From Candidatus Omnitrophota bacterium (GTDB taxonomy: Bacteria > Omnitrophota > Gorgyraeia > Zapsychrales > JAKLDJ01), in contig JAKLDJ010000001.1 in NCBI GenBank assembly GCA_022703585.1, positions 374,891 to 438,890 of the forward strand: a DNA stretch of 64,000 nt, in the 5' to 3' direction. This document shows, one piece after another, positions 36,001 through 51,515 of this stretch (the stretch's first letter is position 1; each line of letters begins with the position of its first letter). The notes below the pieces were generated by a model. The model was not told the DNA's origin. It ran no database searches and was given only the letters and a program-made list of their open reading frames with translations. Position numbers and translations under genes: made by a program.

Positions 36001-39000
36001 TTTATTCAAGGTTAGCTGGGAATCCGTCCCGTCATGTACATACATGCCCTGGCCCCGGATATAATCCACGCCGCCGTTCGCAAAAATCCCCAATGAACGC
36101 GTTGGCGTGTTGACAAGAGTGAGTTGCGGGCTTTGTTTGTCCCCGGAATAATAATAGCGGGTGTTATCCGTGATCGGGTTCATGCTCGCAACCCCTGTGC
36201 CCACCGCCGACAACAGGTCTACCGAATAAGGTGCGTATTGTTCGCCGGCAGCCTCAACTTCCCCTGTGTCAATAAGATTCCCTTGTTGGTCAAATATTGG
36301 TTTCTCTTCGGATTTATCTTGGGTTCCATCAGCTTTCGCGAAAAACCAGGGTTGCGCCTGGCCCGTAGCCAAATTCATCCTGTATGTAGGCGCCCCGGAA
36401 ATAGTGACAACCCCTGAAACCTGCGGATTTTTATTTTCTCCTGCGGCTGACGCCGGGGCATTCTGATCCGCATCTTGAGTAATAACATCCAGAGGAAATC
36501 TGCTGATACCCGCAAGGCGCACCACAGGCCCGTTCTGGTCCCAGGCGAGTTTGTCCACTTTTTCTGTCGATAACATCCTCAAGGAACCGGGCACTTCCTG
36601 GCCATTCGCATCAACTGAATATTCTTTGGCTGAATTCGGAACATAGTGCAATTCGCCCCGGGAGTTTGCGGCCTTCGGATTTTCGATCTCGGTAGAAGAG
36701 TCGTATAAATCAATGGGCTTGCCGTCTCCCCGGACAATATCGGATTGAGTAAAACCGTCTAACCTGACTGAAGCTATGTAGGTCGACCCGCCGGACAATG
36801 AAGGAACTTCCGTAGGAGAATTTTCCCCTTCAAGAAATAGCGGACCTATGAATGACTCCCCGCCCGGCAACGGAGAAACTTCTCCGTAGGGTTGATGCTC
36901 ACTGGCAGGCCCTTCAGAGCCTGATTCTTTGGCCATGCTCTCATTAATGATTCTTGCCTGTTCTTTCGTAAGTTCCGCCGCTCTAACCATGGCCTCAAAA
37001 GCACGCCAGTTGACACTCATGGGTTTTGAACCATCTCCTTTTGGATAATAGCTGATACCCTGATCGTCAACGACAGCAATAGCGTCTTGAATTCCCCTAC
37101 CCGTATCGTTGGGAGCATAACCCAGACCGTTGTACCTGAACGTTCCCTTGTCTTCGAAAACTTTAAAATCACGGATAATTAAGCGGGGTGTTTTTCCCTG
37201 AATAGATTCTTCTGCAGTAAATATCTCGGCACCGCTGGGATTTGCAAGCGAGCCGAAAAGAAGTGTTCTATCAGCCACAGTCCCGTCACGGCCGATAACT
37301 TCTTTTGCTTTCTTTTCTCCGAATATTCTTATTGCGTTTTGAGTCTGCGTTTCTCTGGCCTGCAATTCTTCTTTTGTCTTTCCGGCTTGTTCACCACCGG
37401 CGCTATATCCCGCAACCGGAGCTATACCCGGAGTAGTGGATGAGATATTTGTATCGCCTGTCTCCGGGTTCGGGCTTTCGAGGGACGTTTCTGTCGTCAT
37501 GCCCGTCCCGACGTTCGCGTTCGATTGCGCTGCCGCATTCGTTATGGCATTGGCCGTTGTCTGAGAAGACGCGCCGGGTTCCGAAGCTGATGATGCCATG
37601 GTATTTGACGCAAGCGCCGTAGATGCATTGGTCGTTGCCGTTGAGGCATTGCCCCCCGCAGGCGGCATGCTGGGTGCGGATGAAATATTTCTGTTTACTG
37701 CTTCTCCCTTTTCATATTGAATAAACTGGCCTCTTCCGTAGAGAAGAAAAGTGTACTCATTCCCGCTATTCACATCGGTGGCTGTGTACCCTCCGTCAAC
37801 CACACCTTGGGCTGATTTTGTTTTGTCACCCTGGCGGAATTCCGAGTAGAGGCTGCCCCTTTTATTTCCCGCGCCTCCCAAGGCAGCCATGGCAAGATAG
37901 GATTTACTGGAATCGAGAGCGGCTTGAGTCGGCGCATACGCCGCAAGGGCTGCCATCAGGCCTGCTTTTGAGTAACCACCACTTGACTCATACGCCTCAT
38001 AAGCTTCCTGGAGTCCTTGCGCTTGCAATGCATCCATCTGCGCTTGCTGTTCCTGGTTAAGAGCCGTACTGCCCTTAACCAGAGTCCCCATCGCATCTAC
38101 CCCATCGGCAATGCGCCAAATACTGGCGCCGAATGCGGTCCTATCACCATTAACCATGACCGTCTGCCTGCTGTCGTTGGTGGGTGTTCCGAAATATTCA
38201 ACATCCCAGACGGTGGTGGCACCCCTTGATTTCCATCCCTGCCGGTAAAACAGCGTGGTCGGCGTCGCATCCTTGGCGAGGAGTTTGCCCTTGGCGTTGA
38301 CATCCATGGCCTGAGCAACAACCTGCCAACCAAGATTGACATTTTCCGAGCCCCCGGGGACATTCGCCAATCCGGAGATTAATTCATTGGTCAGATCAAC
38401 TGCCCTGTCGCTGCCCAGAGCATGCTTTGTAACTTCCGCTTCTTGCTCAGGGGTTAAACTGGCACCCACGGTTCTGCGGACCTTCGCGGGCAGGAAAACC
38501 AACCCGACCCCGCCGACATTAGCAAGATTCCACTCCACGGCCTCTTCAGTTTTTCCTGTTAAATTGGCCACGTCCTGATCCAGTGCTGCCTGGACATTAG
38601 CGACTGCCGACCCTTCTCCTTTGGCTACTTTTAAGAAGCGCATTAATTCGGCGTTGCCCTGATAAGAATCACTCTTGCCCTTTTCTGCCACTTTGGACAA
38701 ACTTAAATCGTTAAAAATCGCGATTTCTCCGTTAGATACGATCGTCTCACCGGTAACCCGATAGGTGCTGATAAATTTATCCGCAATGAATTCGTCGGTT
38801 GTTTCGTTTCTTCCGTGCTGGCCGGAAATATTCTGAGCTACTCCATTCTTGAATTTGACTTGTGAATTCCACTGCCAATGAGTAATATTGCCCTTGGAAT
38901 CTGTGAGGGGGTTGCGTGTTTTACTATCAGTCTCGGGAGATTTTTTGTAACTGAATCTCGCCATCAAAGGACTTTTCTCGTTTTCAAACCCGCCGGCAAC

Positions 39001-42000
39001 AGTCATGGTTCTGCCTTTACTCATGACATCATTGAATCTCTGGCTGAACAAACCGGTCAATTCTGTATTTTCTCCTGAAGGGCTGACAACGCCCGCATCC
39101 AGAGACAGCCTATCCGGCCCCACCAAAGGAACTGCCGAACCGTCCTGGTTTTTTAACATGAGCGTTTCCCTAAAGATTCCCAAGTGTGCCTGGTCAGCCT
39201 CGGAAAGATCTTCAGGAAGGTTAATGATAGTTTGGCCCGGGTCAATGAAGCTCTGCGCTCCCGCAATCTTATCGGTGGCGTTGCCGTCTTTGTCAATTAA
39301 TCCCTCTTTTTTCGCCTGGGCCATTGAAAGCATCTTTGTTTCGCCGTCAGCATAGGTTACCGTAACCTTATCCGTGTCATGCGGCATGCTCATCCTGATG
39401 GTATTAAGATTCCTTCCGTTTTTAAGAAATCTGGGATTGGCCAAATGCCAGGTCTTATTACCGTTGTGAAAATCCTGTTCGTAAGCAAAAACGATGTTCT
39501 TTGACGGGCCTATCCGCCCGGGTTTTGCTTTGCCGTCGGCATCGATCAGACCTTGTTCCCGGGCAAAGGCTTCAGCAACTCTAACGCTGGACCCGTCCTG
39601 ATAGGTGACGTTGACATTGCCAAGCATCGCGATGCTGCGCACGCCTTGAGCAGCGTAGATAATTTCTCCGGCATCATTGCTCTGGGCGGCGATTTTGCCG
39701 TTTGCGTCAATGTATCCTTTGTCTTTTGCCTCGTCCCATGACATCGTTTGTTTAGTGCCATCGTTGAGAACAACCTCAAAAACATTACGCGGGTCCACGG
39801 TAATGTCCCTGATGCCCTTGCTCTCTATCCTCGCCATACGCCGAGGGGTAAAGCCTGTCCATTCGGCAATTCCAAGAACAACCGCGGATTTCTTGTAGGC
39901 CAAACGCTCCTGAAATTCCCTTTTGCCTTCGGGACTATCAAGGGCGATTCCCTTATCTGTTATGGCTTTTTCTATGGCGGCTACGTTGCTGTCTTTATTC
40001 GCGACCAAAGAACCGATCCCGTACATGGCCGGCGTAAAGAAGGTAGCCTCGAGAAACGCGGTAGCGTTATTGATGGTCCCGGCGTTTAAACTGGAGAAGA
40101 AATACTGGAGCTGATTAGCGGCGGGATTAATACCTGAGAGTATCTGGCGATTGTAGCTTTCTTTAAGTTCTTCGTCGTTCAGCCGCTCATCGCTGGGCTT
40201 TTCGTTGTTGATCTCTTTCATGTCTTCCCATAGCGCTTTTGAGCGGATAACAAATTCCGGGGTAATCCCGCTCATCTCTGCCAAGTGAGCTGTATAGCTG
40301 TTAAAGTCATTGATTCCCGACCGGCCGCCGATTCCCGGAGTGCCGTATTGTCCGAATTTGTTAGGGGCTGTGCCGCCGACAGTATAATAATTGTAAGCCG
40401 CAAGCTGAATCCGGTTGGTCGAAACGCTGATGACAGTTCCCCAAAATCCCGTATCGCTTGCCAGAGTTGTATCAGCCTGCTTTTCTGTCTTTTCTTTATC
40501 GTCAGCAACACCGCTAAAATCCTGGCTGGGGAATATAAATTTGTCGACAAGTGCCGTTCCCAATCCTGTCGCAAGAGACGTAGTAAGAAGGGCAAGGGTG
40601 CGCATCTCCATCGGCGATAGGCCGGTTTTATTTCTCGTTCCGTTATTCCAGGCCCCTTTCATGTTATGCTGTTCTATGGAATCAAGGAGCGCGCCTACCC
40701 CGGCAGGAAGAGCGCTCATAAGTACGGCGGAAGTAATTCGCTTAAAATTCCCCCAGAACCCTGTTCGGGTATCCGCTTCGTCTAACTGCAAGTCTTTCGA
40801 ATCTCCCTTACCGATGGTGTACCGGGCCGCTAACGACCCCAAAGAGCTTCCGACCTGGCCTCCTATCTGACTTAATCCTAAAGAGAAATTGCTCTGCGGA
40901 TTAATATTGTATTTCTCATAAAGCCATTGACGCATATAGGCACTGGCGATACTGCCGGTCAAGTTTGGAATTGAAGTCACCAGCGTTTGTTTCATCGCGT
41001 CGCCAAGACCGTAAGGCGTAAATTCGTTAGTTAAGTCATCGCGCTCACCCATGTTAAACGTTTCCCGGTAATCCGTACCCAATTTACTATCGCTAAGAAC
41101 AACCAAGGGCGTCATGACGATATTCGTCCCAAAGGAAGACACGGCACCAACAACAGAATTCCGCACCATGGGATTCTTTATCTTCTTGAATATTCCCCAT
41201 TTCTCGACCCACTGGGCCATTTTAAGCTTGATATATCCCGTGGCAAGTCCGAGGCCAAGACCTGCACCAAGACCCTTAAAGAAAGTTGCTGTGGCGCTCT
41301 GATTGGCAAGTGCATTCTGTGCAGGGGTCAAAGATTCCCCGGCAGCCTGTGCGGATCTCGCCGCCGAACGCGCCTCCATTTTTCCCCCCACATACATAGT
41401 CGCCACGCTTAGAGCCGTGCTGACAATAAAAGCGGTGCTCGGGTCCCACCCCCATTTCATGACCCCCACCTGGGACAAGGTGCCGTAGAAATTTGAGGCG
41501 GCCGAATAGACATTCATCATGCCCATAGTCCCGCCCGTCGCCAGATTAAAGGCTGTCTGTACACCTGCGCCGATCAAAAGGTCTTGGGTAGATGTGATCC
41601 CCGGCAGCTGATCGGAGCGGCTGATCCATTGCGAACCCCAGACAAAGGCCATCATCGAATCCGTCACCGCCATGGTCCGGATGGCATCATCAATGCCGGG
41701 GGCCAGGACAAAGCCGCTTAATTCTTCGGCAAATTTTTCTTTTGGTGTTGACAGCGCCCGGCCGATATCGGTGTAGTAGACATTGTCATCGTCCATGCCG
41801 GTAACGGTGACAAAATGTTCGGATTTAAAATTGGCGATAAAAGGTGTTTTAAGTTTGAGGATTTCTTCCGGAGAAAGCTTGAGCGTGGTAAAGTCCAGCC
41901 CGTAACTTTTGACCACTTTGTTGATGGCATACAGCGATGTCTTTAACTTCGGTTCTCCGGGCTGGATAATATTGCTTAAAATGTCCACCAGCAAAGTCGC

Positions 42001-42558
42001 GACCGAAATCTCTTCTAAGGTCACATCAATGTCGCGGGCCATTAATAAATCTTTAAGCGCGTAGATACCGCAGTTTAACGGATGGATGTTGGGATCCCGC
42101 AACCAGGAATAAATTTTCCGGATGCGGCTTGAGGTAAAGAAAATGTCGGAATTGATCAGAATGCTTTTTTCGTCTAATTCGGTATCAAGCGGTGAAGAGG
42201 CGCGGTTGAGTTTGAGATTGATTTGCGGATTTTCTTTGTAGGCGATCTGCCTTAAGAAACTTTCAACATTTTCGGCTATTCTTGCCGAAGACATTTCGGA
42301 GGCAGTGGCACTGGGGCTGACATAATGCGCGCCTTGATCGCCCCAGAGAACCAAGGGATTATAATTAACCGCCCAGCTGACCTGGTCGGGAACAAAAACA
42401 AGGACTATAATCAGGGCCACGGTTCTGATCCAGCTTTTAAAGCTGCTCTTAAACTCGGGCTCAGAATTAATCTCGGGCTGGAGCTCGGGTTTTATATCAG
42501 ACCCTAATCCTTTTGGAGAATCTAAATTAATATTGTCTTTTTCTTTATTTATGTCCAT
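1..42558 (-). CDS. Giant multidomain protein, at least 14,186 aa within the window. The 5' end (ATG at 42558) is inside the window; the 3' end lies beyond the window start, so the CDS is partial.
   Basis: Start ATG at 42558..42556 (revcomp of cat) preceded by GGCGAGAGGCGAGGTAGA (GAGG-type RBS). Every 60-nt printed line is 20 in-frame codons. Hand translation of about 15 separate stretches (42558-40621, 39241-39720, 32281, 29401-29760, 17461-17880, 13081-13740, 12241, 5221-6960, 3541-4860, 2461-2820, 601-1200, line 1) shows no TAA/TAG/TGA and consistently protein-like sequence. No minus-strand frame-0 ORF is listed in the track anywhere in 1..42558, which is expected if the frame has no stop and runs off the window. 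The antisense strand carries dozens of 60-220 aa ORFs, typical of a stop-depleted antisense of a real gene. N-terminus verified as MDINKEKDNINLDSPKGLGSDIKPELQPEINSEPEFKSSFKSWIRTVALIIVLVFVPDQVSWAVNYNPLVLWGDQ... Confidence 0.85.
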   Translation of the reverse strand, partial: MDINKEKDNINLDSPKGLGSDIKPELQPEINSEPEFKSSFKSWIRTVALIIVLVFVPDQVSWAVNYNPLVLWGDQGAHYVSPSATASEMSSARIAENVESFLRQIAYKENPQINLKLNRASSPLDTELDEKSILINSDIFFTSSRIRKIYSWLRDPNIHPLNCGIYALKDLLMARDIDVTLEEISVATLLVDILSNIIQPGEPKLKTSLYAINKVVKSYGLDFTTLKLSPEEILKLKTPFIANFKSEHFVTVTGMDDDNVYYTDIGRALSTPKEKFAEELSGFVLAPGIDDAIRTMAVTDSMMAFVWGSQWISRSDQLPGITSTQDLLIGAGVQTAFNLATGGTMGMMNVYSAASNFYGTLSQVGVMKWGWDPSTAFIVSTALSVATMYVGGKMEARSAARSAQAAGESLTPAQNALANQSATATFFKGLGAGLGLGLATGYIKLKMAQWVEKWGIFKKIKNPMVRNSVVGAVSSFGTNIVMTPLVVLSDSKLGTDYRETFNMGERDDLTNEFTPYGLGDAMKQTLVTSIPNLTGSIASAYMRQWLYEKYNINPQSNFSLGLSQIGGQVGSSLGSLAARYTIGKGDSKDLQLDEADTRTGFWGNFKRITSAVLMSALPAGVGALLDSIEQHNMKGAWNNGTRNKTGLSPMEMRTLALLTTSLATGLGTALVDKFIFPSQDFSGVADDKEKTEKQADTTLASDTGFWGTVISVSTNRIQLAAYNYYTVGGTAPNKFGQYGTPGIGGRSGINDFNSYTAHLAEMSGITPEFVIRSKALWEDMKEINNEKPSDERLNDEELKESYNRQILSGINPAANQLQYFFSSLNAGTINNATAFLEATFFTPAMYGIGSLVANKDSNVAAIEKAITDKGIALDSPEGKREFQERLAYKKSAVVLGIAEWTGFTPRRMARIESKGIRDITVDPRNVFEVVLNDGTKQTMSWDEAKDKGYIDANGKIAAQSNDAGEIIYAAQGVRSIAMLGNVNVTYQDGSSVRVAEAFAREQGLIDADGKAKPGRIGPSKNIVFAYEQDFHNGNKTWHLANPRFLKNGRNLNTIRMSMPHDTDKVTVTYADGETKMLSMAQAKKEGLIDKDGNATDKIAGAQSFIDPGQTIINLPEDLSEADQAHLGIFRETLMLKNQDGSAVPLVGPDRLSLDAGVVSPSGENTELTGLFSQRFNDVMSKGRTMTVAGGFENEKSPLMARFSYKKSPETDSKTRNPLTDSKGNITHWQWNSQVKFKNGVAQNISGQHGRNETTDEFIADKFISTYRVTGETIVSNGEIAIFNDLSLSKVAEKGKSDSYQGNAELMRFLKVAKGEGSAVANVQAALDQDVANLTGKTEEAVEWNLANVGGVGLVFLPAKVRRTVGASLTPEQEAEVTKHALGSDRAVDLTNELISGLANVPGGSENVNLGWQVVAQAMDVNAKGKLLAKDATPTTLFYRQGWKSRGATTVWDVEYFGTPTNDSRQTVMVNGDRTAFGASIWRIADGVDAMGTLVKGSTALNQEQQAQMDALQAQGLQEAYEAYESSGGYSKAGLMAALAAYAPTQAALDSSKSYLAMAALGGAGNKRGSLYSEFRQGDKTKSAQGVVDGGYTATDVNSGNEYTFLLYGRGQFIQYEKGEAVNRNISSAPSMPPAGGNASTATTNASTALASNTMASSASEPGASSQTTANAITNAAAQSNANVGTGMTTETSLESPNPETGDTNISSTTPGIAPVAGYSAGGEQAGKTKEELQARETQTQNAIRIFGEKKAKEVIGRDGTVADRTLLFGSLANPSGAEIFTAEESIQGKTPRLIIRDFKVFEDKGTFRYNGLGYAPNDTGRGIQDAIAVVDDQGISYYPKGDGSKPMSVNWRAFEAMVRAAELTKEQARIINESMAKESGSEGPASEHQPYGEVSPLPGGESFIGPLFLEGENSPTEVPSLSGGSTYIASVRLDGFTQSDIVRGDGKPIDLYDSSTEIENPKAANSRGELHYVPNSAKEYSVDANGQEVPGSLRMLSTEKVDKLAWDQNGPVVRLAGISRFPLDVITQDADQNAPASAAGENKNPQVSGVVTISGAPTYRMNLATGQAQPWFFAKADGTQDKSEEKPIFDQQGNLIDTGEVEAAGEQYAPYSVDLLSAVGTGVASMNPITDNTRYYYSGDKQSPQLTLVNTPTRSLGIFANGGVDYIRGQGMYVHDGTDSQLTLNKDSIPFHRFGYFLDGKQQYVYKYTNPHFVDTSKTQIVVAPDGTESIQVINQEKTLTIVATKGLFQDRTSNYSDLNLNGATAEVRATATGANGAIDVYAGEFIPAADGSFAKSHIAAGTKPDGTDSRDLVNVLPGNSGGEKMPVEPPSETAVVNPPPVGSGINPDQWAVASFGESAKREILDRQLGPNAPQNERDALDRIKGELRDGKRESRGVYALGVPVSDGKGGTVMVLNGTFNAAGGGPDSYYELGRGADGGENADGRFDPASGNTIPLNSDYGDNSGQIRIGLYRTDSDAAQLTSAGVWVDDQGRRKLFGLDVIRGMAWRNNATGAGRSFLDGGFGIADNAGLLQPQMQPEVIVTAERPEIPFAVAQPSSLSVNPALLRTGITTASALSEPVDFDVEIGPGAYEAARNHATWTHGEIGTPLSFSGTVEFTQDFEFNGVVPSRLNPGEQPFFVHGGTILTGDRNNRDTASTQGGYGEGWTSKDGRLAFIFSEGAVNLPSSYRTLGAVYHKTHVATGSEIGPADNTAGQEDSDSDFTPQVTRVNKGDVSAKRIRVTLGNGSTTALTWYGFNPAAKQHQFVSTLGDAKTTVFGTGVQDAGQAIREEGGLIFFRPDSNGQFAVMPTTPEAKEFLDGVKAKMSEYVRVRSADGAEGYVPKEHWADRTEEQEAPQGYFDRALFAAGKFNMGKPDGGRGDNDVMLQEVGEDGKSNGLWRRVDKSQFLGTIRLGGEEKNILTKLGKAVAPGLAKIGLGPQGDLAFSADVYSGGDIAIEDQSGQKVSSGLFDGIDGSYRSGDYFALGFNGGRDTGIVLDQDVIHKGLGFLAREETDSYGNVVGFGGPLRYDSFIKNEAIMAKFSGRMENFSGTVDAISLIPVFKLVGFGVKEGVKLGVSAAVKAGAKAAGTEAAEAVAKTAAVEGTEVAAREAAQVAARAAAKTAEAELAATAAQQLNANQRITLAAAKALARVNAAEVPGASFTRAAVKTSVFSLAAGNAISLGVTGKPLSFEDNIRAVTSSLGILTLGRMASLPMNTANLYAKGFMGSMKGIRPHLIGLGGAIVVGSVGGGIAEKIKSRTAGPGGVNLRPDYSAAFLKGAIKAAAVYTGFMFGLRPIFASSLSVKQAFGSVGVSAISLGVFQAANELGDPTNERTWGHALSRGKGGAIAGAEISAGLLAFRGITKLNTDPNPKNPHFVGKYLDQMTNNVANQKTFTTVRNVAGRWTAGGAAAWAYGSYKEKKLISPFSAEGGLLLVSGIALSAILLGKGSVKGYLAGGVKNLGEMKPFTLTSSMASGAIGFAEAGLIWEGSKLGFNGIKNLLTGNLPQYEGDDLLRRKAEFFVGQTVLGSIAGGFESGPFLGPVLGVTMPQAIAPAGRLAAGEKGILGWASLLGRGVKKGIDKKREGQGFFSFSPADLIGKTAKTGEYISFVHRTFGKQIAKADSLAAFLGLNDLLTAAEYKVLSRSYAAKQGIEVEDIPEAMANQLKTKAGDRALWRSVLLLPNAGGMGGVEKRIDSRPDSGNSGDRLRTDIDSPTTGGDPTARADRIEALTKTSLARAGQRAQAGDLAAAGHNLARAAGLALAGEQALRAIPTPAPSPSAERVTPAEGAIPQEASSLGSSETRAPPSAEIAERISALRKVRLQATNLIDNVNTLLSETARPQESLAAERVSLTQDLEAAQHTLGSVESALATNAAELARAQKISTSADQTLSRRQAVADRASARAADATTRNQGTHQAVRAETRAADALAKSDRAAQDAYADMALTGARVTGEQSVLEAQRARLLGDIATAQQGLRAIDGVRSREHYQQAAADARAQTLALAEATVSELSQPAASPSAEVARRSTLITANNILERINTSLSETARPQESLAAERVSLTQDLEAAQHTLGSVETALATNAAELARTQRASTSADQTLSRRQAVADRASARAADATTRNQGTHQAVRAETRAADALAKSDQAAQDAYADMALTQARVTGEQPVLESQKARLLGDIATAQQGLRALDGVRSREHYQQAAADARAQALQLAEATVRDAEAGRLPSTLEAYRHLSESADLLSPTARPQESLDAERASLTQDLQAGQDTLGSVESALATNAAELARTQRISTSADQTLSRRQAVADRASVRATDAATRNQGTHQAVRAETRAADALAKSDRAAQDAYADMALTQARVTGEQSVLEAQRARLLGDIATAQQGLRALDGVRSREAYQGLAEQARAQALELAKATVAEAGNLPSTRDAQRRLAEAADYLSQVARPQESLDAERASLTQDLQAGQDTLGSVESALATNAAELARTQKASTSADQTLSRRQAVAARASARATDATTRNQGTHQAVRAETRAADALAKSDRAAQDAYADMALTQARVTGEQPILESHQGRLLGDIATAQEGLNGLEGVRSRENLQGLTQSALAEMSRMARESYQRAEKEGATEAPAMSTVRASESSPVSRPAMQIVDSQTGDVLFNLPGVEAPAVSELAKPAARPAAEVPAASDLARPADTMAIGTELSRPAETVEFSTPTTRELGLLRSAFQEHIPAKDLSHIDFIIKGVVKNKPNATPGEIVRIVSGMLGDQILNNFLLPDAQFLHQYVAALQRGESISLQNAVPLVAKAGSAETVAPELAQPTLTAQDHFRLGESQRAAGELSSASQSFRTAQRLATEMGDSSLANRSRDQRMEILSQRRASRAVTPALAEVSGVSEAPATPVLAEPVTPAAAPEAPAPAPLQLVKSPKPAPAQTRDFVSRAMDKLRSSAASKAATIALTIGLTSSALLMSDTNLRANSRGPEQLSSRPTTEFVVQSPDTGKALASETPAAPMISPEQTELYARTLDQFENSRSQKQQELSKLNPDNLPYDAWLDPATNPQGVIRGSLTFQEGFKARIFADALREIGLQRVSNNGGTQVIAGAINDQPFRFYFHTLERKEGLPEGGIYRAAGEDSINIIGYSGHSASDALQDPSVALAPSETNEKVCFNFACFTDAFRSDMFEKWGTDVQYVSVNRPGDTYLNAEYFKQAVVGMSRHENWAQIGARADRNMPSDYARYVISPADGGVSVDLNRNMWIDRVERNISRSAIEQLSLLLPDSSGASYDATLSNRTLYLDYKVKTALGWDKELDQYKDSTWFAGWFKSPNPDEHVRVARDGKDLYFAINADHRGDLSNELIMATLYHLGEKIGELEGKDSDYGKALGLRMAFDHANSFLGGSFDAFRAKNNIPAGITEDMIETARKWNSPGARQEAMRTIASNFKADAATRKTAQPTEAIAATPAQKPASAVVEAVTLASSPLPATVQDTPKAPAAPAPLPGSPLSDASLPVLTGLLGLGIFLGAKNRNRGLSGEGDSRLAKPATRSTTESPMAKPKVRRNSGDVTLYSGVPLDAETLGELGRTVAGAARGLRELGRKASDRVSERIRERRSEDRLARVDSKARPVIGSDGPSAAKVAELMTSGGEDLSVQGAGFHPDIPKFLKKGYGSPDAKDIGQKEGLQLLTRAIERARSTTRVLANIAKGGSKSTLGVALVGKQAVSEGGMAFVIDNAGAIDRSMPEIKKMLEGEAVVERWNSDLTEADKLDLIARTDVLMLTAKQAEAFRLSESDAIWDALYAKSKGIAWQYDAEFKPYQVPMQRGGNQQEIASPKGVYEAAELAWTARKEGKIIYGEDGTASASPQLVDQVLGKLGVETEARARGEKQAEFARFVSAVEEAAKPTGHLQGDRVLTTDLDGAASPAVVMADPYKAAVQDAITRIIARENGIRVSRQGPIFVGTSVDRVRVEDFWSKFSERGFTTRRIDATGNDLSDLSGQAELALRGGELLVPESRMAGIREVPGFDVGRDTALRSRDGKAISLNSGFQETASEMAVGGRAVFVDAAGREGHTALEVQDAARRYAVSKGTDMVVLGALEGPSGSERFILRDPSKPVTESNKRPLTQEEFDLGMQNPDTKWTVLLSQPRAMGDTVDMLGLKTHPKDTLIVITNEFTRGKLASQALIRGRAPIREQGAKADYAHPELIPRKIIALDVVNFSDPAKYIEHMEGPVQRSFDRTATAQATFEYGQRQGIMRQERWEADAATDAERGALQQIRDKIAQSNHALRHSSLAEPAKEAKKTIESAIEETVNSANRVIREHFRMHPEQLRELSPRTRAEVESIMRGEQDIRITLTAESGDLSKGISVQEAQTPKEFEQAVNARLSKDMVPTYSPGFREGQMLVERVVTAEVVKPVVAADQGLVASRAPPKVIVTTAINGANGPEIKSYRSENPFFVVIPGTLPSSELQNPGAGIQLGPNQMFVPSNGSVPLGLIPQFGFIYNKDNDKNPVAIAVPLQEGGFVTAAIKDNSRFSLQGSVAIVTHENDSQISIPVREVYSVDTTAGTHSLLHREIGELPQGIQEQDLLGVKTGDRITEHGYVVSIADVGNADPAKVKAVHYAGTLVPVDSATHQFTAPFLTGFSDDIKIVEQTYQITDATKEVGDPVQYTIEGRGDLLKGLGLPGGSASQEIVSVTVGREAFAKAMEIPSRRFDEIFSRIVENGIIRQEVNTTGRSVKATTDIKAGQTGFEELQAAKADLEMAYRVADALEGLDDQESVQLRQEALEAARIIQMQIDPANKGGHIFFLSELDQDAILERTEALLRRNLVSEQAMQSLSAQDRQEKLTPVELARFMYQMEAEDTLMGAHAGGAGKNLDNIYITRTAANAKTHFEAVGQPLLAQASYEARMASAILHEAISRANTKRTHSENVRIERDMRTILASLPAVQLVPVDRDTDLRQAARERIQKRYDRNVFIAKKGFTDVQTEQGPIQREINIFSRVSLDDSGNVKLEELKGEDVKTILSGGVVLFGKGDLLPSDENARRIAEVARVDVETFALPSAPAIGQANIPAETSNLGGALPAPMQQSFPGSVPFVPGLLLPPMARGNLGQDVPGQMKEQALRADQTRRDLYALEQEAPLADSVPSLAGDGLLESGGLLKGESRLPGGDLAASAALAGDIALKADRTNQREPANKKYGGDEWLRASLDRVDGDLRVLAAEADVSYSTAVDWVRNLRNNGGDPTGKYAALVATASKARQQEVGLKGDRYPGDSIMSGLIASTRASTAEIAKARGVSETAARRYIKRYIDGDPRQRQAEFDRARGQLHKPSFDYPGHYKMAQWIKQGDGIQTQIAKNQGVSQSTISKYFEVFNEDANRRLFLKQVRTEADFKKRTGQPLNSALTSYLVDHPDTPTLKELEAALKVPPDILKTYLRDRKFVSGVLYALLLKKGEIKVSELRRKSTGTGLLSSAIKDHGLSNVFAFTHKKFHPYILDYFGIYDPRGPAIALSQAQVKTRVRDYLKALHPDRVKHALEPQLKKAGLSEDEIWRIANAQFMAIRNNGDLLLNHWTWWTRAGFAPSSAVMSRPAVARIARAVLSRRNTPQSGMLLGSGPIESAAAAPAVKVMEAAAGSKMVRTSEMAKPVSVQAMATAPMAELKLQEVSDTNLTADNNRDVALKADRSPIPSTTKVAGTSLLAQAEPQQHLAVNIESLLNGGARIRRDVLLLTSEQLARLEPGTTIVSIDGKTAVVGRDKISLDTRYNALAYGFPLENIKSIRPLPMPGQPAQARPVTDDRIRELQGMLSDSGDDNSYDADFTQTMQELWTISLTNPGLTPQVATALIESAKNNAGYRTSRALVDFSKVNPEFTEQAITTLDEIARDNPHNIYTPDALVAMVRGNPKITDRIISALESQIAINKHAAGALARTITDMPPYFTKQVYSMLKKNIDWPGVLQALAWMATVVPDYADETKSILKQEAVKGNMEAAEALVGALPKKKGKPQAFVMTARDMTPQFTKQLYSVLKSHIDQPAAPWALVQITNELDKPGVAQALARIATAVLKNHVNKPGVSKALAWIAATVPDYAAETKSVLEQEVLKGNMDAAGILAAFDMPAFRMENLSLPVIEKLASHGRHYSPRAAWQFILKAPSMAEPSPRAARIRAAQKEISNLIAQFENLAKEDGRRTDKKMVRDLREKIALPIFELAGKPVSEQSFPKMVTNYYRVPDLNIIRTVALRGNAGQELVKNRLLHRLGKVDDTRPLAVVVYPKSDHNNALLNPTNATALTKHYRVLYYEASTPDEMVSALKDATNLEDPARYQPASLVVIAGHGTRGSIQFGPKETDVLTMPVVLKKLQRAGLSRVLTADGKVMLDSCSTGAQRWYGGKNMADALARIFQRPVTAPNKPTSSRMTVNTNTGRPLAEINYTRAEKYVALPSGNNDSLVDRVRWMLSGILAQRMPVPAFTEASDNLSSRIAMTSKRQALEANPTIDNSRGDVALPANKETGDGQSSWLHLSINGTRIDIRPSDLIGLIVARQNRFGQLEDFQPMLDKVGLDHAVISQGLEKAAVDVVRYKIETVKEGYQVTKQGPVFTYLDEGGALAAFAIDRAVPGNSSYLADPDYDIVVKIPHEDLNFYSKKILAPELARGYDIIKNRLGPELTGAIVLEDVSLMIRGGHVPRKIHQYPFVFVQQKVETFANFRDRMNQEREAALAKSTTEKERAAVNRNYDKAIEDFQNDIISLRAEMARRGVIDLDVVNVARNYGRTIGPNSRVVVIDMDYLAYGEDAVHNLKKAVENYPHRVPIIVSKKVAAPADLSAEWRKGWQSRIVDMQADRSWPEFIQPELQVQLNEPYVDSIHKYWATTLQEFEAAWKSQDSTALNNSQRAVPPFYVEVTRAQEKYLAELIRESAKLGMDLPFGTDTPANGQGDISLKANRIKEEIPLTQSSQVTIGAPTVSNLSAVAQPSQPEPLSDIRAGSAMPPLPELKSGSVAVPQAPNALPETQILPPSIMTAPMPPALAVPPIASLNGTKPRWVNTAMPKPRLGIDNVPLLAFADTDNGMRQSRFDFPQSPIDSPYNTPSQKRKEAPAPTAPGPVSMPVSPQPTGNDGSSSGSSKAPVSVVAYQQGIGASSADIVKAPQIAFNNQQGFKNEILLKVKDGSKLTSGIHDNSTKPSGTLAVSQTGLNKSARQKAMDLVVRVFGSASTFTAMVANIAKALARRSESSEADFIGNVLAGNGLQKNSRRQSADKVQGARGLRLVIEGQAVEISGSARPVIGNDGEDSLVVRSFDILAANGSLSRTLPVTGLPKAGNALVVCDVLLRDTAKATEVNEEPATEPATSKPRSAEDVRNAVEETRNFKAEENSFAVESAHTNSAEIARRASLSLVTPVTPSNLPENNINSQDLSVIISKGRASNRNLRLGSFTQSAESRRASPVVDVRASDNLFNNGDLAYVGNPSSNASVQVSATTLYSFPGMLFDKDLWKGLFGNRGSARGRIPSPAVDVRASKYTRGNDVALTATRTDAERDSVRPFGYQSVIHEAAQQLVTYKEQYALRCLGEAVAYAAFSDVTPKQALAQFLTNNNIPESEKKSISAIIGKIVSDDTQETLVKFMRDARANMEDSERPLELQSKQIEATGMVFANFGGVVIEWPTGRGKTFVSTAGRASFQLMEALENRPFKSKSLILAPDITNMPRAAVYDAYLRTVSAVKLADGKPAVRVGIVLDDFSVWTYADGVAEMSLKEAEETAKQAGSYKALLREVKMADLTQDFDIVVMPQQTFLNIAKGHNEEAAAVSADTNETQAVAAAAVQSPEKIKGSKDYLSAFKPSVNDGKNRIIWDDAHIAVTEPGLIDSIRIDPERQLTDANFKSGWNLMRLFREVIKEVELRRSDLDSTHRPSPIVWGQATHPNGTTIPREAVNEQVKKEIMAHLQKLVPGLNLKEEKWIREEFEEAVDVAIMSLLDKETRDIYRTFEFPDTNGETVTGIIVHVIEKNEKVPYIMDAETGYREALSGSSHRMETEKGIRYFTSNSDSDVLVRFEGGTTGSDKVFILNEKDLVKFNYRLAQEGDSRPTHIHGSAVKAALTALKSGAGNIEAMKHYFSLRGDMTDIFSIKRFLVGKDAPTPLVLMTATPVRGPLEVLGFTNANYLQLDRVDMDSKLRMAKYIRVSAGNILEASIQGITQALRESKSVKVNKPNEVFEEWPVRVTVLVTQSGDDVYKAVARLTELKRKGAFAGDDVRIEGVEGSIGDAKTKKMDELGKVIRSEYADSSKDSRKHLIVVVNKLNDGTNLLALATDAAKAYAARIVRIGSKHTAVADVQLIGRAGDRTKKIFDDFRAPAEDMMAYIDEARIGPAERGLLVRVDIQREELKKQFPAGSSQLKSELEKLSEVEQDLFRQFAKNRGIIEDFEASLRAARQMAGVKDTSRITDVRASHTPSDMEMEQINHTYNQRFGALANLPSETKNQAAEDVARQGQIRGAPAAAIDEVSEVASSLIEAPQAIRDVLSTLPQDSDIAAFVNTLFDANKNGLFRNYNSKKPSREQSEFIDTVKNFVLAAKYGFVGTDAFGRVIELSEKGRKLSDTFKAYKAENRTSAQGQSDLVALNSAIDTVIREHRAEVIGNVADEAGLGSALDSQWNEDLLNIYLKSDGRSWRDREAVLEALNSYIARYQVAKPEGDEHSAAVVNAAKLLRTNVEDEKQKREDTEHRTVALVRKAAVSNAVKFLVKHPNFGGFLASLVLLPIAHSESISSSVIDARYNRNKVIKTLAYIYTPLNKSFNTMSPWLTELRAHKNPLKKMFSSLKTHPFHGYLLWNLTKNQMPQRAEKIDLTFKQLAEMGKAILGDKGRKENTLNGMALAGMLSNQDFERAGKAYDLLENSVPAAKQEKVLGNWTLRKFFTLMSNDYENKKGPEEGILAARGLWRLTLSAVHHVKGGWLKDRSDLGIYRGTLEYWMAKQARGLRKKGNSDGRITIALFNYSADKNSPLWKIVKKFKKEVKKDLVQEKGQSKESYQLEVERQARARAEKALKPYLFGFDYDEKANQAFKELQQRADKRDEKFDLGPITAQNLRDGNIPVDIEKENKRKERKWKSITDLASSRELEDIEEEFTPAERTRLGKMLQKKDGLERLWNALKDPAQYGQDEFLQRLRKIWIGVPDADLAGRFKATKEEKAILRAVHKGSLEREEASSDLIESAQRAAMALNRPDIALFLEGVSKSQTLGVYVVSCEKGDKRFSGKTSAFGQQGIYIFAEKDAQGQEPVALTRLNQRAKSLVDQTKRLGSADNAQYARNAAGLEADVLKNQHIDEANIMLALPGVNDTLNDGAKSRILSLMVGERTQGLEETVKHYRAVARDMLKAVKPKMDAVDASFVQKGISLVREFSRQVLPFMQDKEGRSIEGWQQYEAVTKSSSMHLGAVPEPGEGLKRITSQDGSMVVDYAGPDLTDEEKAQILKTRQARHVVEQTKRFVDMTPSLGQKKSYSEQIRGLARALNTLKDAAEIFGLDRISAIADMSQARSEVTDAMVRQGERQFFEGLGKILEKDDEDGLANKMIKQLKNPAVIVPFVRNHIVRDLEEFIAFRQAKERSIESQQAFLEHSSLRWMADKVRVLSNEELFAVKEALAEKKVSDSLLTLVANLSGISRNSERAMPPLKLTRAMIERHFDNVRDGRSEAGRILWSEFNESDINQVLAQFDSSMAGYTVSRVELDVLSLSLKERVQKFQNALKAKGYLPESYKVKGKMDITTQAAYEKFAADETAEDREYIEDLHTSATIKQAHISQGPSLVYLRAPDEQDGYLAAVVLSEHGQLLGKEKEDGTVDFYGFPNKEEFFAAFKNGGNVIFSVNGSYAGSLLVRDRNVAQRMQGTVSSNAKRLDLKAALDINKEKTDGTVEKRTIKSDMGEVSGIKFFKGMHLNHEQLKSWFNLSDWQASRAHNPGKPVRVTKWNLAVPNLSVAVFLLMKGSFMAHLTYGVLGYFGQKMGVTSKTHGATQMGNALLGMGLWGFAKTGTGVAALGSIAKSIGVSSVVIAGAEISAVTVMVMAITASLGIALSVASHLLKQYASDSMIANIDKFTLYGESAFKTHDLFRLPKRISSNRTQIRGSLTMIVPLAGSAYFFSAGATLPGIIAAAMLPVIAIFINHEPRHSIEAARFGKVTSKMEFTAMGGLATIKGLSELTPAKAFWVAGVGPIGDTFLMGPTWFTIGLMQSGFGLLPAVAGVAGFYSLMYATHRLTAKSSALRVMSYFVPAVYLAAVLATGNLSIVGNHLPAAAHDGSVFQLWDYISKNLVHASSLGQINNAMKDISGIRELLGNLNFFTQLGTLTVMLGFFNGLPIHPMDGGRMLQAFLEPTDYSGLGSKLWRIGFAGAMFAVPSAIFLGAGGMIPPVFGSAFVINVAIYTFPQFIASVVNAFKENSLETTQTIGLVGGGLFVLAAVSSQNLMVGIMGVSLALQNLTQIMGVKPHNREGLHSGLPSLDLRKIREDRGVVAEQTPAPAPAEPKSIPVNVPANGVPPVAPTPNGGKGLPMHFAPATNMPVLYQPIFTLGEARTGVRVIYRTAGNSTGIHGNSTSAGPSSHKGVGVDNESATAVSNPTRTIPGFISFISGVKPRLNAVSSFNGIHNIPTQNDYNQKPKQSPANLQSKFAEISSRRIVGTDHGGALWTLDHQTPVTRHQSPVTGQTTNTLHSITLLNLAETIASLAPAAKRLLAKLGSSLSSITTGKFTPAMGKKTPGKLSMPMTQKLFASLPATPALSGIKLGETSSLNSFVPFVFAFGMAQDADSVIAQLGWERNVAKDAVKLMATMNIAEGDTVVFVGGRYFMEPMIAAAAFGARVISIDPIYENCDNPAMARSHSAELVPAQYISLVEGIEFISERLGELSGATKALLAGAGTIKGIVALNVIDDVYPDLAVEILYDALELISDRGSIALSVGLPRYEWKIDDAREALELLAHKIGGWRVEKIAENLQTGKTYYNRATVFQVIKNLVDAGPSMPLAGIAIARRMSDVEINIARYEERYRAMMSDFNEEPFSLNPVSQALVERQRNMTVAEAVEIYVKAVKEYGVSQDKGRYEGRDPVMLFGEPKAWCDIYGNKVAGSAGMAELLKESGRDERIKEAVLQSGIITIALNFLQERIKSGELTADESRKLFNQAADNLNAFNLVALPFAALMGLFTLAAQARVEEAGESSGHWAQLSLSEFNAARERVLWAVRHIGATYPVRQGNTRTALITNTKFILDLFRNPNRERTRFFIMAFNELWGGRENANRTLLRTSLGRVINMSPLFWAPVSKTGFYSSLHSVDYTLQVIEHEMAVTLLAREILKNKQLCAGAAQIALADFVGLSHDLGKLDEELITVFSDRRRYWKEGDPVHGNDQVLSKVDTERAREHGQISIDLLRVSGIALPEGAQEVILSMHAPKPAESFRLVSSVMRLADGFDGILDTLRPYHRELRERVRNGSSISAEACRTFVIQRQYLRLMESSVFELPIYLALVELFEKKDPTFMAVANRTREDLVELPTPRSLTQILRPMKLAEGEAVYGFSLLAPVAFTVMALGFMSYDIVRFFNKHIRDRKPVQISSLKKTWPLVAVPVVAAAGAMYMDPIAVEKTALVTGIIGAAAAVAGITKIIVDSRRKSAPRQIRAMAVRRGQREQTRREFLSLMVKGAAGLAVAGSGVYGIAKKVVEIEEASRIRKEAEKAEQAMADFKARLTEAAYRLDSFSGSLNNTRTFSTMIAVLSTLLPRGKKEELVAGWNLRPEVAKDQERFTANLANHPERISDLLETLIYAGTIDRLEVFYAQLMRRSDANTAQALGQARIALKRGMTDRERKNPTLYYVLTAQDKAAARRTLSFVRFADLARAHGIPSEGIIAIWMMETPDQSRITINSNRYFTLERKGLGKSTGWDMGVSQVKGRNFEKFFGSLEGSRNPFNAEDNTTVAIMLLKDIHDRISKMIGSRMSDADIWRLAFGIYHIGQDTDVNDAIRECLNGSADKISYEKMLACISRGQNTNAHWYASNVDATRLVLNEVIALTQELPGLKIRMQEYKTVAAVADHSNLQASMPGILPLIIASLALAKMISMVRSSVRDRSQAKSGPASTRSNRAEAGTVPVNSLPPATTIPAPKLPVAPQVPNQFKGFNPIAPLMMPVHMILGALNNLFGAGTAYADEVGKNEQVLQNGFEGARPGSVMAAPVAQSVAAVKTSKARLLAVNPAAVVRLALLTHHFVSSHIYS
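28750..31050 (-). repeat. Four tandem in-frame coding repeats, unit 582/588/615 nt (194-205 codons), about 90% nt identity, inside the giant CDS.
   Basis: Anchor string cgccggtaacacgggc recurs at 28905, 29487, 30075 and 30690. Flanking strings (ttgggttaaagccatgtcggcataggcatcctgggc..., ctaattcagcggcattggttgctaaggcagattcaacactgcctaaggtat) recur with the same spacing. Spacings are multiples of 3. One verified unit translates to ...TLGSVESALATNAAELARTQRISTSADQTLSRRQAVADRASVRATDAATRNQGTHQAVRAETRAADALAKSDRAAQDAYADMALTQARVTGEQSVLEAQRARLLGDIATAQQGLRALDGV... (Ala/Gln/Arg/Leu-rich, predicted helical or coiled-coil). Confidence 0.85.
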
Positions 42559-42720
42559 TCTACCTCGCCTCTCGCCTATTAATGTCCAGACTGGAAATTA
42601 AATTAATAGGTACGACGACTGCAGCAGAATTAAAGTAAATGTTTGTTTTTTGATTTAACCGACGGACGGAACGATAAAGGCCTTTGCAGGAAGGCCGGCT
42701 GAATTCGTGGGAATTTGAGG

Positions 42721-42750
42721 CATAAAAAATCCCCTGTAATTGCGCAGGGG
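42721..42750 (-). terminator. Second hairpin plus U-tract (minus strand) in the leader of the giant gene; possible attenuator.
   Basis: cccctg (42731-42736) and cagggg (42745-42750) form a 6-bp stem with an 8-nt loop. On the minus strand this is followed by AUUUUUUAUG (revcomp of cataaaaaat, 42721-42730). It lies 165-190 nt upstream of the giant-gene ATG. Confidence 0.3.
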
Positions 42751-42798
42751 ACAACCGAAAAAAGATAATAAAAAGCCTATTAATCAAAGACTCTATAA

Positions 42799-42960
42799 TC
42801 CGTGGCTTTTGAGTTCTTGTTTGCACTGTCCTTTTCTCCGTGGCTTTTGCTGCTTTTTGATACTCGAAAAAAAGATAGGCTGCCGAATCCTCGACGGTTT
42901 CGGCAGCCCGAACTACATCACTTAAAAAAACAAATGTTTTTTAAGTTTTCCGTGGCTTTG
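42799..42960. promoter_or_regulatory. Three direct copies of TCCGTGGCTTT(T)G in the intergenic leader upstream of the giant gene; candidate transcription-factor sites.
   Basis: tccgtggcttttg at 42799-42811 and 42837-42849, and tccgtggctttg at 42949-42960. A related copy ccccgtggctta lies at 54189-54200, upstream of the flp pilin array. Confidence 0.3.
42865..42908 (-). terminator. Intrinsic-terminator-like hairpin plus U-tract on the minus strand, between tadC and the giant gene.
   Basis: ggctgccgaa (42878-42887) pairs perfectly with ttcggcagcc (42899-42908) around an 11-nt loop. On the minus strand the stem is followed by UAUCUUUUUUUCG (revcomp of cgaaaaaaagata, 42865-42877). Confidence 0.5.
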
Positions 42961-43721
42961 CTCACTTCGTAATCTTTCTTTTGGAAGTTCGCCTTTATCG
43001 TTCCGTCTGCAATTTAAATATATCATATAGTATATGGTTGTCAAGCCGGCAGCACCGGCCTAAAACACCCAATCATCAAGCACATCAATGACTTACGTAA
43101 TTGGCGAAAGAATTTTAAATTTTTTTAGAAAATTTTTCCAAAGCCGCTTTCTTTGCGGAGATTTTTGCCTTTTTTATACGGCATGCCGATTGGATTTGAT
43201 CATGATTTCCGCATTCGTCACCATGGGAAATACGGCGTTTTTTAAGAAAGCGATCGCCTCAAAATGACCCGATAAGATATTTTTCCGTCGGAAGCAATGT
43301 TATTTCCGTCGGAGAATGTAAGAAATCTTCTTGGGCCAATCAAATGAGAGAAAGAAAAAAGACGGACAGAAGGCCGGCTCCGCAACTCTTGAATTTAAAA
43401 TGCACGGCTTGAACGCCCTCACGCGCGCATCAAAAAACATGCATCAAGAGAATAAAAACGGAAAAATATACACAGAGCCTGGAGGAAAATATGCCCGGCC
43501 CCGGAAGAGTTTATTTCTTGCGGATTTTCGGGTAGAGAGATATTTAAGAAGATGGGCTTTAGAAATCAGCTGAAACTATTGAAGATTATGCCTTGGTTTC
43601 TTTCTTTGGACATTTCTATACGAATTTTTTATAAATTGGACATTATAATTCGGGATTTCCTGTTGAATTTAGCACAGAAAATGTCCATACTAAAGCAGTT
43701 ACCGATTGGCGCCTAAATGTT

Positions 43722-44720: not shown

Positions 44721-44739
44721 AGCGAAACAGTAGGGGTCA

Positions 44740-45597: not shown

Positions 45598-45642
45598 AGG
45601 ATTTATTCTCTAACCAAAATTACCTTTAACAAAAATACCCCA

Positions 45643-49298: not shown

Positions 49299-49361
49299 TC
49301 TTTCTCCTTGAATCTTGTTACGTCAAATTTGCCCTAACCCTTTATTTTAAAAACCTTAAAC

Positions 49362-51494: not shown

Positions 51495-51515
51495 TCCTAT
51501 CCCTCTTAAGTTTCT

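Follow-up and report, generated by a model that had tools for sequence, protein, structure and literature searches.

The window, a stretch of 64,000 nucleotides, contains a giant open reading frame (ORF) that leaves it on the left, so that the encoded protein is at least 14,186 residues long. The minus-strand frame without stops spans 1..42597. It has an ATG at 42558, which is preceded by GAGGCGAGG and coincides with the starts of homologues (MDxRL/MDIKL...). The main features of the locus are as follows.

1..42558, minus strand, giant ORF of at least 14,186 residues, continuing beyond the left window edge
5626..6279, minus strand, Peptidase_M50 domain (site-2-protease type), residues ~12094-12311, inside the giant protein
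42559..43044, minus strand, promoter-like site and structured 5' leader (~460 nt) of the giant gene
43722..62896, minus strand, Tad/Flp-pilus gene cluster, directly upstream of the giant gene on the same strand (from Pfam and ORF translations)

The Tad cluster encodes RcpC, a secretin with TonB_C, a ParA-like-CpaF fusion, a DUF192 protein, a 978-residue protein, five pilin-like proteins (Pfam scores all below the cut-offs), a TadE-like protein of 476 residues, an 87-residue protein, a Cys-rich protein of 1083 residues, a 134-residue protein, TadB and TadC. The giant gene closes this cluster in collinear order, and the same arrangement is found in 60 of 62 related loci. No A24 prepilin peptidase was found in the cluster over the 21 kb that lie within the window; the cluster may extend beyond the right window edge, and such a gene may therefore lie out of view. 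An Rfam scan of the window returned no matches.

When the whole giant protein was compared with Pfam in 16 overlapping chunks, the only confident match was a C39 peptidase domain close to the N-terminus; the M50 match was borderline in these chunks. HTH, DUF4347, HD, ResIII and SLT_2 all remained under their cut-offs in the same scan. There is no ABC_membrane or ABC_tran match at E < 0.01 in the 14,186 residues, nor any SecA_DEAD or dockerin match at this threshold in the visible part of a protein that extends beyond the window. A phmmer search of the whole protein against PDB sequences gave no matches, almost no homologues were found for the interior, and a reduced-alphabet k-mer search revealed no recurrent short motif exceeding the shuffle level. 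Hydropathy marks membrane-spanning candidates at residues 44-64, ~320-720, 3050-3450, 5490, 11910-12410, 13118-13632 and 14018.

Relatives of the C39 head have been found in the genomes of at least 96 species, almost all from Omnitrophota, and the 80 related loci, like the homologues, are nearly all labelled Omnitrophota or Omnitrophica. Conservation across species is restricted to residues 36-322 (64 aligned relatives) and collapses after residue ~325. This head module of ~290 residues is the sole cross-species conserved part of the giant protein. The relatives are large proteins as well: 77 of the 83 related ORFs overrun the fetched locus, and the median length downstream of the module is 3,503 residues. 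The C39 module begins within the first ~150 residues in ~140 of the best 150 representative matches.

The C39 peptidase domain

The head of the giant protein is composed of the following elements.

42454..42558, minus strand, variable charged N-terminal tail, residues 1-35, predicted to be cytoplasmic
42370..42453, minus strand, predicted export signal, residues 36-63 (hydropathy and conserved consensus)
42142..42369, minus strand, post-signal motif (V/F)NYNPxxLW, then a helix and two strands leading into the peptidase, residues 64-139 (alignments)
41674..42141, minus strand, Peptidase C39 domain, residues ~140-295 (Pfam PF03412, AF2, Foldseek)
42070..42072, minus strand, codon of catalytic Cys163 (motif NCG), present in 83/83 loci
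41815..41817, minus strand, codon of catalytic His248 (motif EHFV), present in 82/82 readable loci
41767..41769, minus strand, codon of Asp264, third triad member (His+16), present in 82/82 readable loci
41599..41649, minus strand, junction motif A-F-V-W-G-[NSD]-x-W...P-G, residues 304-320, directly C-terminal to the peptidase
40399..41595, minus strand, Gly/Ala/Ser-rich hydrophobic region, residues ~322-720, putative membrane tether of the peptidase head

A preliminary description of this DNA had proposed a C39-like cysteine peptidase at the N-terminus of the giant protein. The peptide on which it was based is indeed the minus-strand translation of 41745-42110 and corresponds to residues 150-272 of the giant ORF. 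The domain itself is larger than these coordinates, covering residues ~140-295 (41674-42141) of the at least 14,186. It scores 40-42 bits against Pfam PF03412, for which the gathering score is 22, with E-values of 1e-10 to 4e-10, and we therefore do not regard the match as due to chance; it spans profile positions 41-126 of 133. Of the two families that had been suggested for comparison, Peptidase_C39 is thus well above its threshold, while C39_2 gives a weaker match under the cut-off.

The AF2 model has a papain-like fold with pLDDT > 90 across the C39 domain. The closest structure in the PDB according to Foldseek is LahT150 (6mpz; E 3e-6, TM 0.70), which is also returned by a PDB profile search (E 5e-5). 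It is followed by PCAT1, ComA peptidase domains and the C39-like domain of HlyB (3zua, 7sgr). The LahT150, PCAT1 and ComA matches have a target TM of ~0.7 and a probability of 1.0; sequence identity of the C39 domain to solved structures is only 15-24%. Nearly all of the top 25 PDB matches are C39 peptidase or C39-like domains. The predicted fold thus agrees with the structural comparison to C39 peptidases that had been proposed. Together with the PF03412 score and the conserved Cys, His and Asp, it bears out the assignment as a C39-like cysteine peptidase.

In the AF2 model Cys163 starts a helix (residues 163-174), His248 opens a strand and Asp264 is located on the next strand. His248 aligns with the region around the catalytic His in LahT and ComA, and Asp264 with an Asp of both enzymes (yinDp in LahT, iaDp in ComA). 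The catalytic Cys/His pair named in the preliminary description holds throughout the family: across 83 related loci with 36-57% identity, Cys163 is invariant, as are His248 and Asp264 in the 82 loci where these positions can be read. Invariance of the triad at this level of divergence argues for selection on catalysis.

ComA and CvaB have an oxyanion-hole Gln six residues ahead of the catalytic Cys. This canonical Gln is absent from the giant protein, and in the related loci the position varies among N, D, E, G, K and S. The relatives instead share an invariant Pro at -7 and an invariant Asn at -1 from the Cys, with His or Asn at -4. Another residue may take the place of the Gln. We consider it very probable that the domain is an active C39-type peptidase.

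Export signal, junction and membrane segments

The N-terminal tail (residues 1-35) is unconserved among 64 aligned relatives and has pLDDT < 50 in the AF2 model. It is followed by a basic n-region (F-K-S-x-F-K-x-W-I-R), ~11-12 hydrophobic residues and the sequence P-D-Q-V-S-W-A. The hydrophobic helix SWIRTVALIIVLVFVPDQVSW covers residues 42-62, with a Kyte-Doolittle peak of 1.96. The consensus F.SRF..W...F.P.Q.SWAF.YNP is at least 80% conserved in the 64 relatives, P-[DE]-Q-x-S-W-A after the short hydrophobic stretch is invariant, and the 64 sequences show a charge pattern that is positive ahead of the helix and acidic behind it. The helix had initially been described as a signal anchor. A hydrophobic helix is present, but the anchor label is less secure: the ~11-12 hydrophobic residues and the invariant P-[DE]-Q-x-S-W-A make a cleavable Sec signal peptide at least as plausible. 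Judged from sequence, the export signal may be of two kinds, a signal anchor or a Sec signal peptide for which cleavage is predicted after SWA. The predicted location of the C39 domain, which follows this export signal, is outside the cytoplasm, and we think that it probably acts there. In the segment between the signal and the C39 domain, pLDDT values are 86-92 for residues 81-110, ~81 for residues 111-120 and 58 for residues 121-130.

The junction motif that follows the peptidase is at least 80% conserved among relatives, with pLDDT values of 87-90 up to residue 310. It fits a relaxed double-glycine-like pattern, with Val at -12, Met at -7, Val at -4, Gly at -2 and Ser at -1. Most relatives have Asn or Asp at the junction where C39 substrates carry Gly, Ala or Ser. 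We speculate that residues 304-320 are a docking or self-cleavage segment. A segment with a Kyte-Doolittle value of at least 1.6 follows within 120 residues of the PG motif in 45 of 51 relatives.

The M50 domain near the left end of the window scores 30.8 bits against PF02163 when a 371-residue segment is searched (cut-off, 27.2) and 26.9 bits in a 1000-residue chunk. Its motifs are HExxH at residues 12104-12108 and DG at residue 12301. A second protease domain within the same protein fits a polyprotein-like design. The motif (G/N)D(V/I)(A/S)L(K/P/T)A(D/N/T)(R/K) recurs five times between residues 7152 and 9482 of the giant protein; no copy of DVALKA(D/N)R or DVRAS is present in the fetched relatives, which reach at most 7,820 residues.

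Possible substrate and role of the peptidase head

C39 peptidases cleave after GG, GA or GS, with hydrophobic residues at -4, -7 and -12 (PMC10885120). The strict double-glycine leader pattern occurs four times in the 14,186 residues of the giant protein, compared with 1.3±1.1 times in shuffled sequences, which we do not count as enrichment; the relaxed pattern occurs ten times, compared with 12.7±3.5, and is not enriched either. No other ORF in the window starts with a double-glycine leader. The predicted extracytoplasmic location and the missing Gln suggest that the C39 branch of the giants may depart from the double-glycine rule.

The best overall explanation, to which we assign a probability of roughly 0.55, is that the locus encodes the C39-type peptidase head of an Omnitrophota giant membrane protein, located outside the cytoplasm and involved in maturing the giant protein. 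The export signal would direct the C39 domain across the cytoplasmic membrane, and the helices that follow would tether it to the outer face. As an endopeptidase, the head could then mature the giant protein by limited proteolysis, acting on its own chain or on another copy, so that working pieces are produced or surface-exposed parts set free. The AFVWG(N/S/D) junction after the C39 domain is one candidate cut site. That the giant protein itself is the main substrate is the likeliest role for the head, although we advance it tentatively. A more elaborate version appears improbable: the protein might contain a built-in release or maturation switch, with a self-cut at AFVWG|(N/S/D) after export and a polyprotein diced at linkers, possibly with the help of the M50 domain, and deployment might be coupled to a prey-contact machine of the Tad type. 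The motif that recurs five times would be one candidate linker in such a scheme. If this were true, bacteria would have a cellular polyprotein that brings along the proteases for its processing, and the C39 domain of the giant would have a specificity other than double-glycine.

The head could instead process other proteins, such as components or cargo of the Tad-type machine (the pilin-like, TadE-like or Cys-rich products, whose genes are always upstream), or exported peptides with double-glycine-type leaders encoded elsewhere. Characterised C39 domains do cut separate substrate peptides (PMC10885120). The collinearity with Tad genes in 60 of 62 loci points in the same direction, as does the lack of an A24 prepilin peptidase in the 21 kb within the window, although that enzyme may be encoded beyond the right window edge. 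We nevertheless consider processing of other proteins unlikely: the pilin-like proteins carry a G/A|QxxxEY site of class-III type, not GG/GA/GS, and no ORF in the window bears a double-glycine leader. Aspartic peptidases cleave such class-III-type sites on the cytoplasmic side of the membrane. A narrower idea, that the C39 domain stands in for the missing prepilin peptidase, was rejected as the main reading, as the pilin sites are not of the GG type and the predicted membrane side is wrong.

Tad-like machines serve contact killing in Myxococcus, and the Foldseek matches include a papain-like cysteine protease toxin/immunity pair (9l5u) and CdiA-CT (8ssk). The domain might therefore be an effector that is delivered into prey cells and cleaves proteins there, much like the papain-like toxins known from contact-dependent or type VI systems; the literature ties Omnitrophota giants to predation. 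We regard a toxin as quite improbable: the domain is N-terminal, between an export signal and membrane segments, rather than at a deliverable C-terminal tip, it is not followed by an immunity-like gene, and no other part of the giant protein is as well conserved, in contrast to toxin domains, which usually vary the most. Less probable still is a non-catalytic C39-like domain that binds or tethers unfolded polypeptide during export, as in HlyB. The structural matches do include the HlyB domain (3zua, 7sgr), and the canonical oxyanion Gln is absent, but the C39-like class is characterised by loss of the catalytic Cys, and the 82-83 loci compared here all retain Cys, His and Asp. Chance similarity or an unreal ORF can practically be discounted, given 42.6 kb without stops, a Pfam E-value of 1e-10, a fold match that is independent of the sequence match and relatives in at least 96 species genomes.

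Relation to known systems

Omnitrophota giants with an N-terminal C39 domain beside a predicted signal peptide and with many membrane helices have been described, and cleavage has been proposed for this architecture (West-Roberts et al. 2023, 10.1101/2023.11.21.568195). A SecA_DEAD-like domain is common in these giants but not universal (same reference). A PF03412 architecture cluster of 24 giant proteins has been reported in a 2026 preprint (bioRxiv 10.64898/2026.06.07.730766), and pilus or type II/IV secretion genes flank such giants (10.1101/2023.11.21.568195; 10.64898/2026.06.07.730766). Our protein shares with them an ORF of more than 10,000 residues, an N-terminal C39 domain with a signal, membrane helices, few other recognisable domains and pilus neighbours. 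Nothing essential differs; no SecA_DEAD or dockerin domain was detected in the visible 14,186 residues. Since the preprints already describe C39 heads on these giants, the present one is a further confirmed example and not a discovery. What we add is the invariance of the triad, the absent Gln, the signal-peptide-like helix, the limit of conservation at residues 36-322 and the Tad collinearity in 60 of 62 loci. Whether bacterial giants of 10,000 to over 100,000 residues work as single chains or as many cut products is most practically approached by experiments on the C39 head: no other part of this protein is both recognisable and conserved across species, and the head is small enough to be expressed and mutated and has an intact triad.

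The peptidase domains of the PCAT/AMS transporters (LahT, PCAT1, ComA, CvaB) share the Pfam family, the fold, the Cys/His/Asp triad and the N-terminal position before membrane helices. In the giant protein, however, no ABC membrane or ATPase domains follow the C39 domain, which is preceded by an export signal and predicted to be extracytoplasmic, whereas the PCAT C39 domain is cytoplasmic. The giant's C39 domain also has no Gln at Cys-6 and no double-glycine substrate gene nearby. HlyB-type RTX transporters share the C39-like fold (3zua, 7sgr) and the link to a very large exported protein, but the HlyB domain is cytoplasmic and without the catalytic Cys that is invariant in the giants. LapG is a periplasmic cysteine protease that frees the giant adhesin LapA by cutting its N-terminal retention module. 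It is a transglutaminase-like C93 enzyme, a separate protein and specific for a di-alanine site, and we claim no homology; the analogy is purely functional and lies in a periplasmic-side cysteine protease that could govern how a very large surface protein is released or matured.

The giant open reading frame and its C39 domain

The minus strand runs as a single frame without stop codons from window position 42597 to position 1. Its first ATG, at 42558, is preceded by GAGGCGAGG, and aligned homologues start at the equivalent residue (MDxRL...). Because the frame is open from this ATG to position 1, the length of the giant protein is a lower bound: it comprises at least 14,186 residues and extends beyond the left window end. 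The C39-like peptidase placed at 41745-42110 in the preliminary description corresponds to residues 150-272, and the peptide quoted there is correct. The hydrophobic stretch SWIRTVALIIVLVFVPDQVSW spans residues 42-62.

The identification as a C39 domain is supported by both profile and predicted fold. Pfam Peptidase_C39 (PF03412) matches with 40-42 bits, above its gathering score of 22 (E 1e-10 to 4e-10), but C39_2, the other family suggested earlier, scores 17-20 bits and stays under its cut-off of 24. Matches in NCBIfam were weak and local, limited to the peptidase portions of ABC transporters for bacteriocins. An AlphaFold model of residues 1-330, built on an alignment of 25 homologues, has a mean pLDDT of 80, rising above 90 across residues 140-310. 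Structural comparison, which the preliminary description had proposed with ComA-type peptidases, was run with Foldseek against the PDB; almost all of the top 25 matches are C39 peptidase or C39-like domains, among them the LahT150 double-glycine protease (6mpz; E 3e-6, target TM 0.70), PCAT1, the peptidase domain of ComA and C39-like domains from HlyB and from Vibrio. The papain-like toxin 9l5u is also among the hits.

In the model, Cys163 begins a helix (residues 163-174), His248 begins a strand and Asp264 closes the next strand, a predicted arrangement that is papain-like in layout. When aligned by HMMER, the catalytic His and Asp residues of LahT and ComA coincide with His248 and Asp264. 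The cysteine and histidine originally singled out as the catalytic pair hold across relatives: Cys163 is present in 83/83 loci, and His248, like Asp264, in all 82 readable ones. ComA and CvaB carry an oxyanion-hole Gln at position Cys-6, whereas in the giant proteins this position is variable and the canonical Gln is absent. Around Cys163, Pro at -7 and Asn at -1 do not vary, and position -4 is either His or Asn.

Conservation and predicted export of the head

A word-indexed search returned 25 homologues with 38-59% identity, all of them fragments, all with PF03412 and, where named, from 'Candidatus Omnitrophica'. Searching 1.84 billion cluster representatives with a profile yielded 201 proteins at E ≤ 1e-30. 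Of the best 150 matches, about 140 have a module that begins inside the first ~150 residues, and proteins among these 150 reach a contig-limited length of 7,820 aa. Scanning one genome per species revealed a relative in 96 genomes (top identity 57%), from which 80 loci were kept; their label is nearly always Omnitrophota, the remainder being third-party MAGs labelled 'uncultured Planctomycetales' and one 'Elusimicrobia'. In 77/83 loci no stop codon interrupts the reading frame before the retrieved DNA ends, and the median length downstream is 3,503 aa. When 64 N-terminal segments of 900 residues were aligned, only residues 36-322 proved conserved, with a collapse past ~325, and an interior 900-residue query found just two homologues, both weak. 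The protein thus diverges fast except for the peptidase head, its conserved core.

Three database relatives (P0072, P0154, P0161) have three or four internal C39 modules, for example at residues 1646-1795 of 3,237, and not a single N-terminal copy. In two loci (L002 and L003, ENA ERZ1286166) gene calling has split the homologous giant gene into dozens of short pieces, for which frameshift errors are the most likely cause. Database 'proteins' of 300-600 aa that carry a C39 domain can for this reason be pieces of a giant.

Preceding the C39 domain is a helix in three parts: the basic n-region F-[KR]-S-R-F-x-x-W-[IV]-[RK], a hydrophobic run of only ~11-12 residues, and a near-invariant P-[DE]-Q-x-S-W-A followed by (F/V)NYNP. 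With small residues in positions -3 and -1, the arrangement follows that of Sec signal peptides. The preliminary description was right about a hydrophobic helix in this place, but what it termed a signal anchor looks rather more like a cleavable signal peptide (P-[DE]-Q-x-S-W-A), an anchor being the less likely alternative; under either reading, the sequence pattern predicts a domain outside the cytoplasm. The C39 domain is followed by a conserved junction motif, AFVWG(N/S/D)xW...PG, and hydrophobic segments come after it in 45/51 relatives. No ABC domain was found downstream anywhere in the 14,186 residues. The predicted extracytoplasmic location of the giant-protein domain differs from that of the C39 domains of ABC transporters, which are cytoplasmic.

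Upstream Tad-type cluster and leader

A Tad-type pilus cluster adjoins the giant gene upstream on the same strand:

42559-43044, minus strand: promoter-like site and 5' leader of the giant gene
43722-62896, minus strand: Tad-type cluster encoding RcpC; a secretin with a TonB_C end; a ParA-like-CpaF fusion; DUF192; five small pilin-like proteins (G/A|QxxxEY starts, below Pfam cut-offs); a TadE-like 476-aa protein; a Cys-rich 1083-aa protein; a 134-aa protein; TadB and TadC

Of the 62 related loci for which 5 kb or more lies upstream, 60 share the order pilin-like, TadE-like, Cys-rich, small protein, TadB, TadC and C39-headed giant, the giant gene being the last of the collinear cluster. Two proteins without a Pfam match recur in these loci, the Cys-rich protein of ~1,100 aa (59/62) and the pilin-like Cys-rich protein of ~134 aa (57/62). 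No A24 prepilin peptidase was seen within the window. Two unusual fusions lie at 58192-62014 (minus strand): a single ORF of 719 aa that joins a ParA/TadZ-like ATPase to a CpaF-type secretion ATPase, and a secretin whose C-terminal end is a TonB_C domain.

About 460 nt ahead of the ATG is a strong sigma-70-like promoter, TTGACA-16-TG-TATATT (11/12 matches). The 452-nt leader is structured (z = -4.8 against shuffles) and contains three terminator-like hairpins and three exact copies of AAAGCCACGGA. Allowing one mismatch, this 11-mer occurs 90-350 nt upstream of the gene in 11/71 related loci, with another at -745; its density is 0.30 per kb upstream versus 0.015 per kb in the background. The leader can be aligned to those of two related loci, L004 (E 2e-19) and L014, and has no match in Rfam. 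Candidate roles for it are those of an attenuator, an antitermination element or a site for a regulator.

Possible roles of the peptidase

Giant ORFs and Tad genes have been described for the Omnitrophota phylum (Seymour et al. 2023, PMC10066038), and West-Roberts et al. (10.1101/2023.11.21.568195) reported N-terminal C39 domains in Omnitrophota giants, suggesting that such domains may cleave the giants or other substrates. A 2026 preprint (10.64898/2026.06.07.730766) grouped 24 giants of at least 10,000 aa in a PF03412 architecture cluster and found that 13 of the 14 largest giants have neighbouring genes for secretion or pili, Tad cassettes included. The preliminary observation and its interpretation therefore agree with prior reports, and the protein in the window is another member of the giants already reported. 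Our additions are incremental: triad invariance across species, the missing canonical Gln, the signal-peptide-like helix, conservation limited to residues 36-322, the counted Tad collinearity, a negative search for double-glycine sites, and an M50 domain in the same protein:

5626-6279, minus strand: Peptidase_M50, site-2-protease-type, aa ~12094-12311, with HExxH at aa 12104-12108 and a DG motif at aa 12301

The M50 domain scores 30.8 bits as a short segment, against a cut-off of 27.2, and 26.9 bits inside a 1000-aa chunk.

The preliminary observation is confirmed, and its interpretation is supported as to the identity of the domain; the functional roles given here are putative. Since the triad is invariant across relatives, a working peptidase is favoured over a non-catalytic tether of the HlyB type, which we rank last and consider very unlikely. 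Putative self-maturation of the giant protein ranks first, with a probability of roughly 0.35-0.4; two proteases, C39 and M50, in one giant membrane protein would fit a polyprotein-like design. Using the double-glycine substrate rule of PMC10885120, the giant protein showed no enrichment of leaders by either the strict pattern (4 versus 1.3±1.1 in shuffles) or the relaxed one (10 versus 12.7±3.5). The conserved junction directly after the C39 domain, VTDSMMAFVWGS, fits the relaxed pattern and is modelled with a pLDDT of 87-90, which makes it a speculative self-release site, even though its last position is N or D in most relatives. Processing of Tad-associated or other substrates by the C39 head ranks second and is doubtful; no double-glycine leader was found at the start of nearby ORFs. 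A prey-directed effector, ranked third, is improbable.

Further motifs occur within the giant protein. [GRN]D[VI][AS]L[KPT]A[DNT][RK] recurs in polar linker regions at aa 7152, 7646, 8464, 8897 and 9482, and DVRAS at aa 9406, 9471 and 10396, together spanning 11356-21105 on the minus strand (aa 7152-10401). By a hand estimate ~0.15 copies of the core are expected by chance, for a pattern defined after the copies were seen; the motif may be a processing or recognition site. A segment at aa ~8286-8376 (17431-17703, minus strand) matches DUF4347 with 24.5 bits, just under the cut-off of 24.6, and its ...VVIAGHGT...LDSCSTG... is reminiscent of a caspase-like His/Cys pair. Near aa 5125-5165 lies a comparable pattern, GYSGHS...FACF, and judged by these motifs both are possible further protease-like modules. 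The sole large internal repeat is an array at aa ~3715-4707 (28438-31416, minus strand) of four tandem ~200-aa Ala/Arg/Gln-rich units with 73-86% mutual identity.
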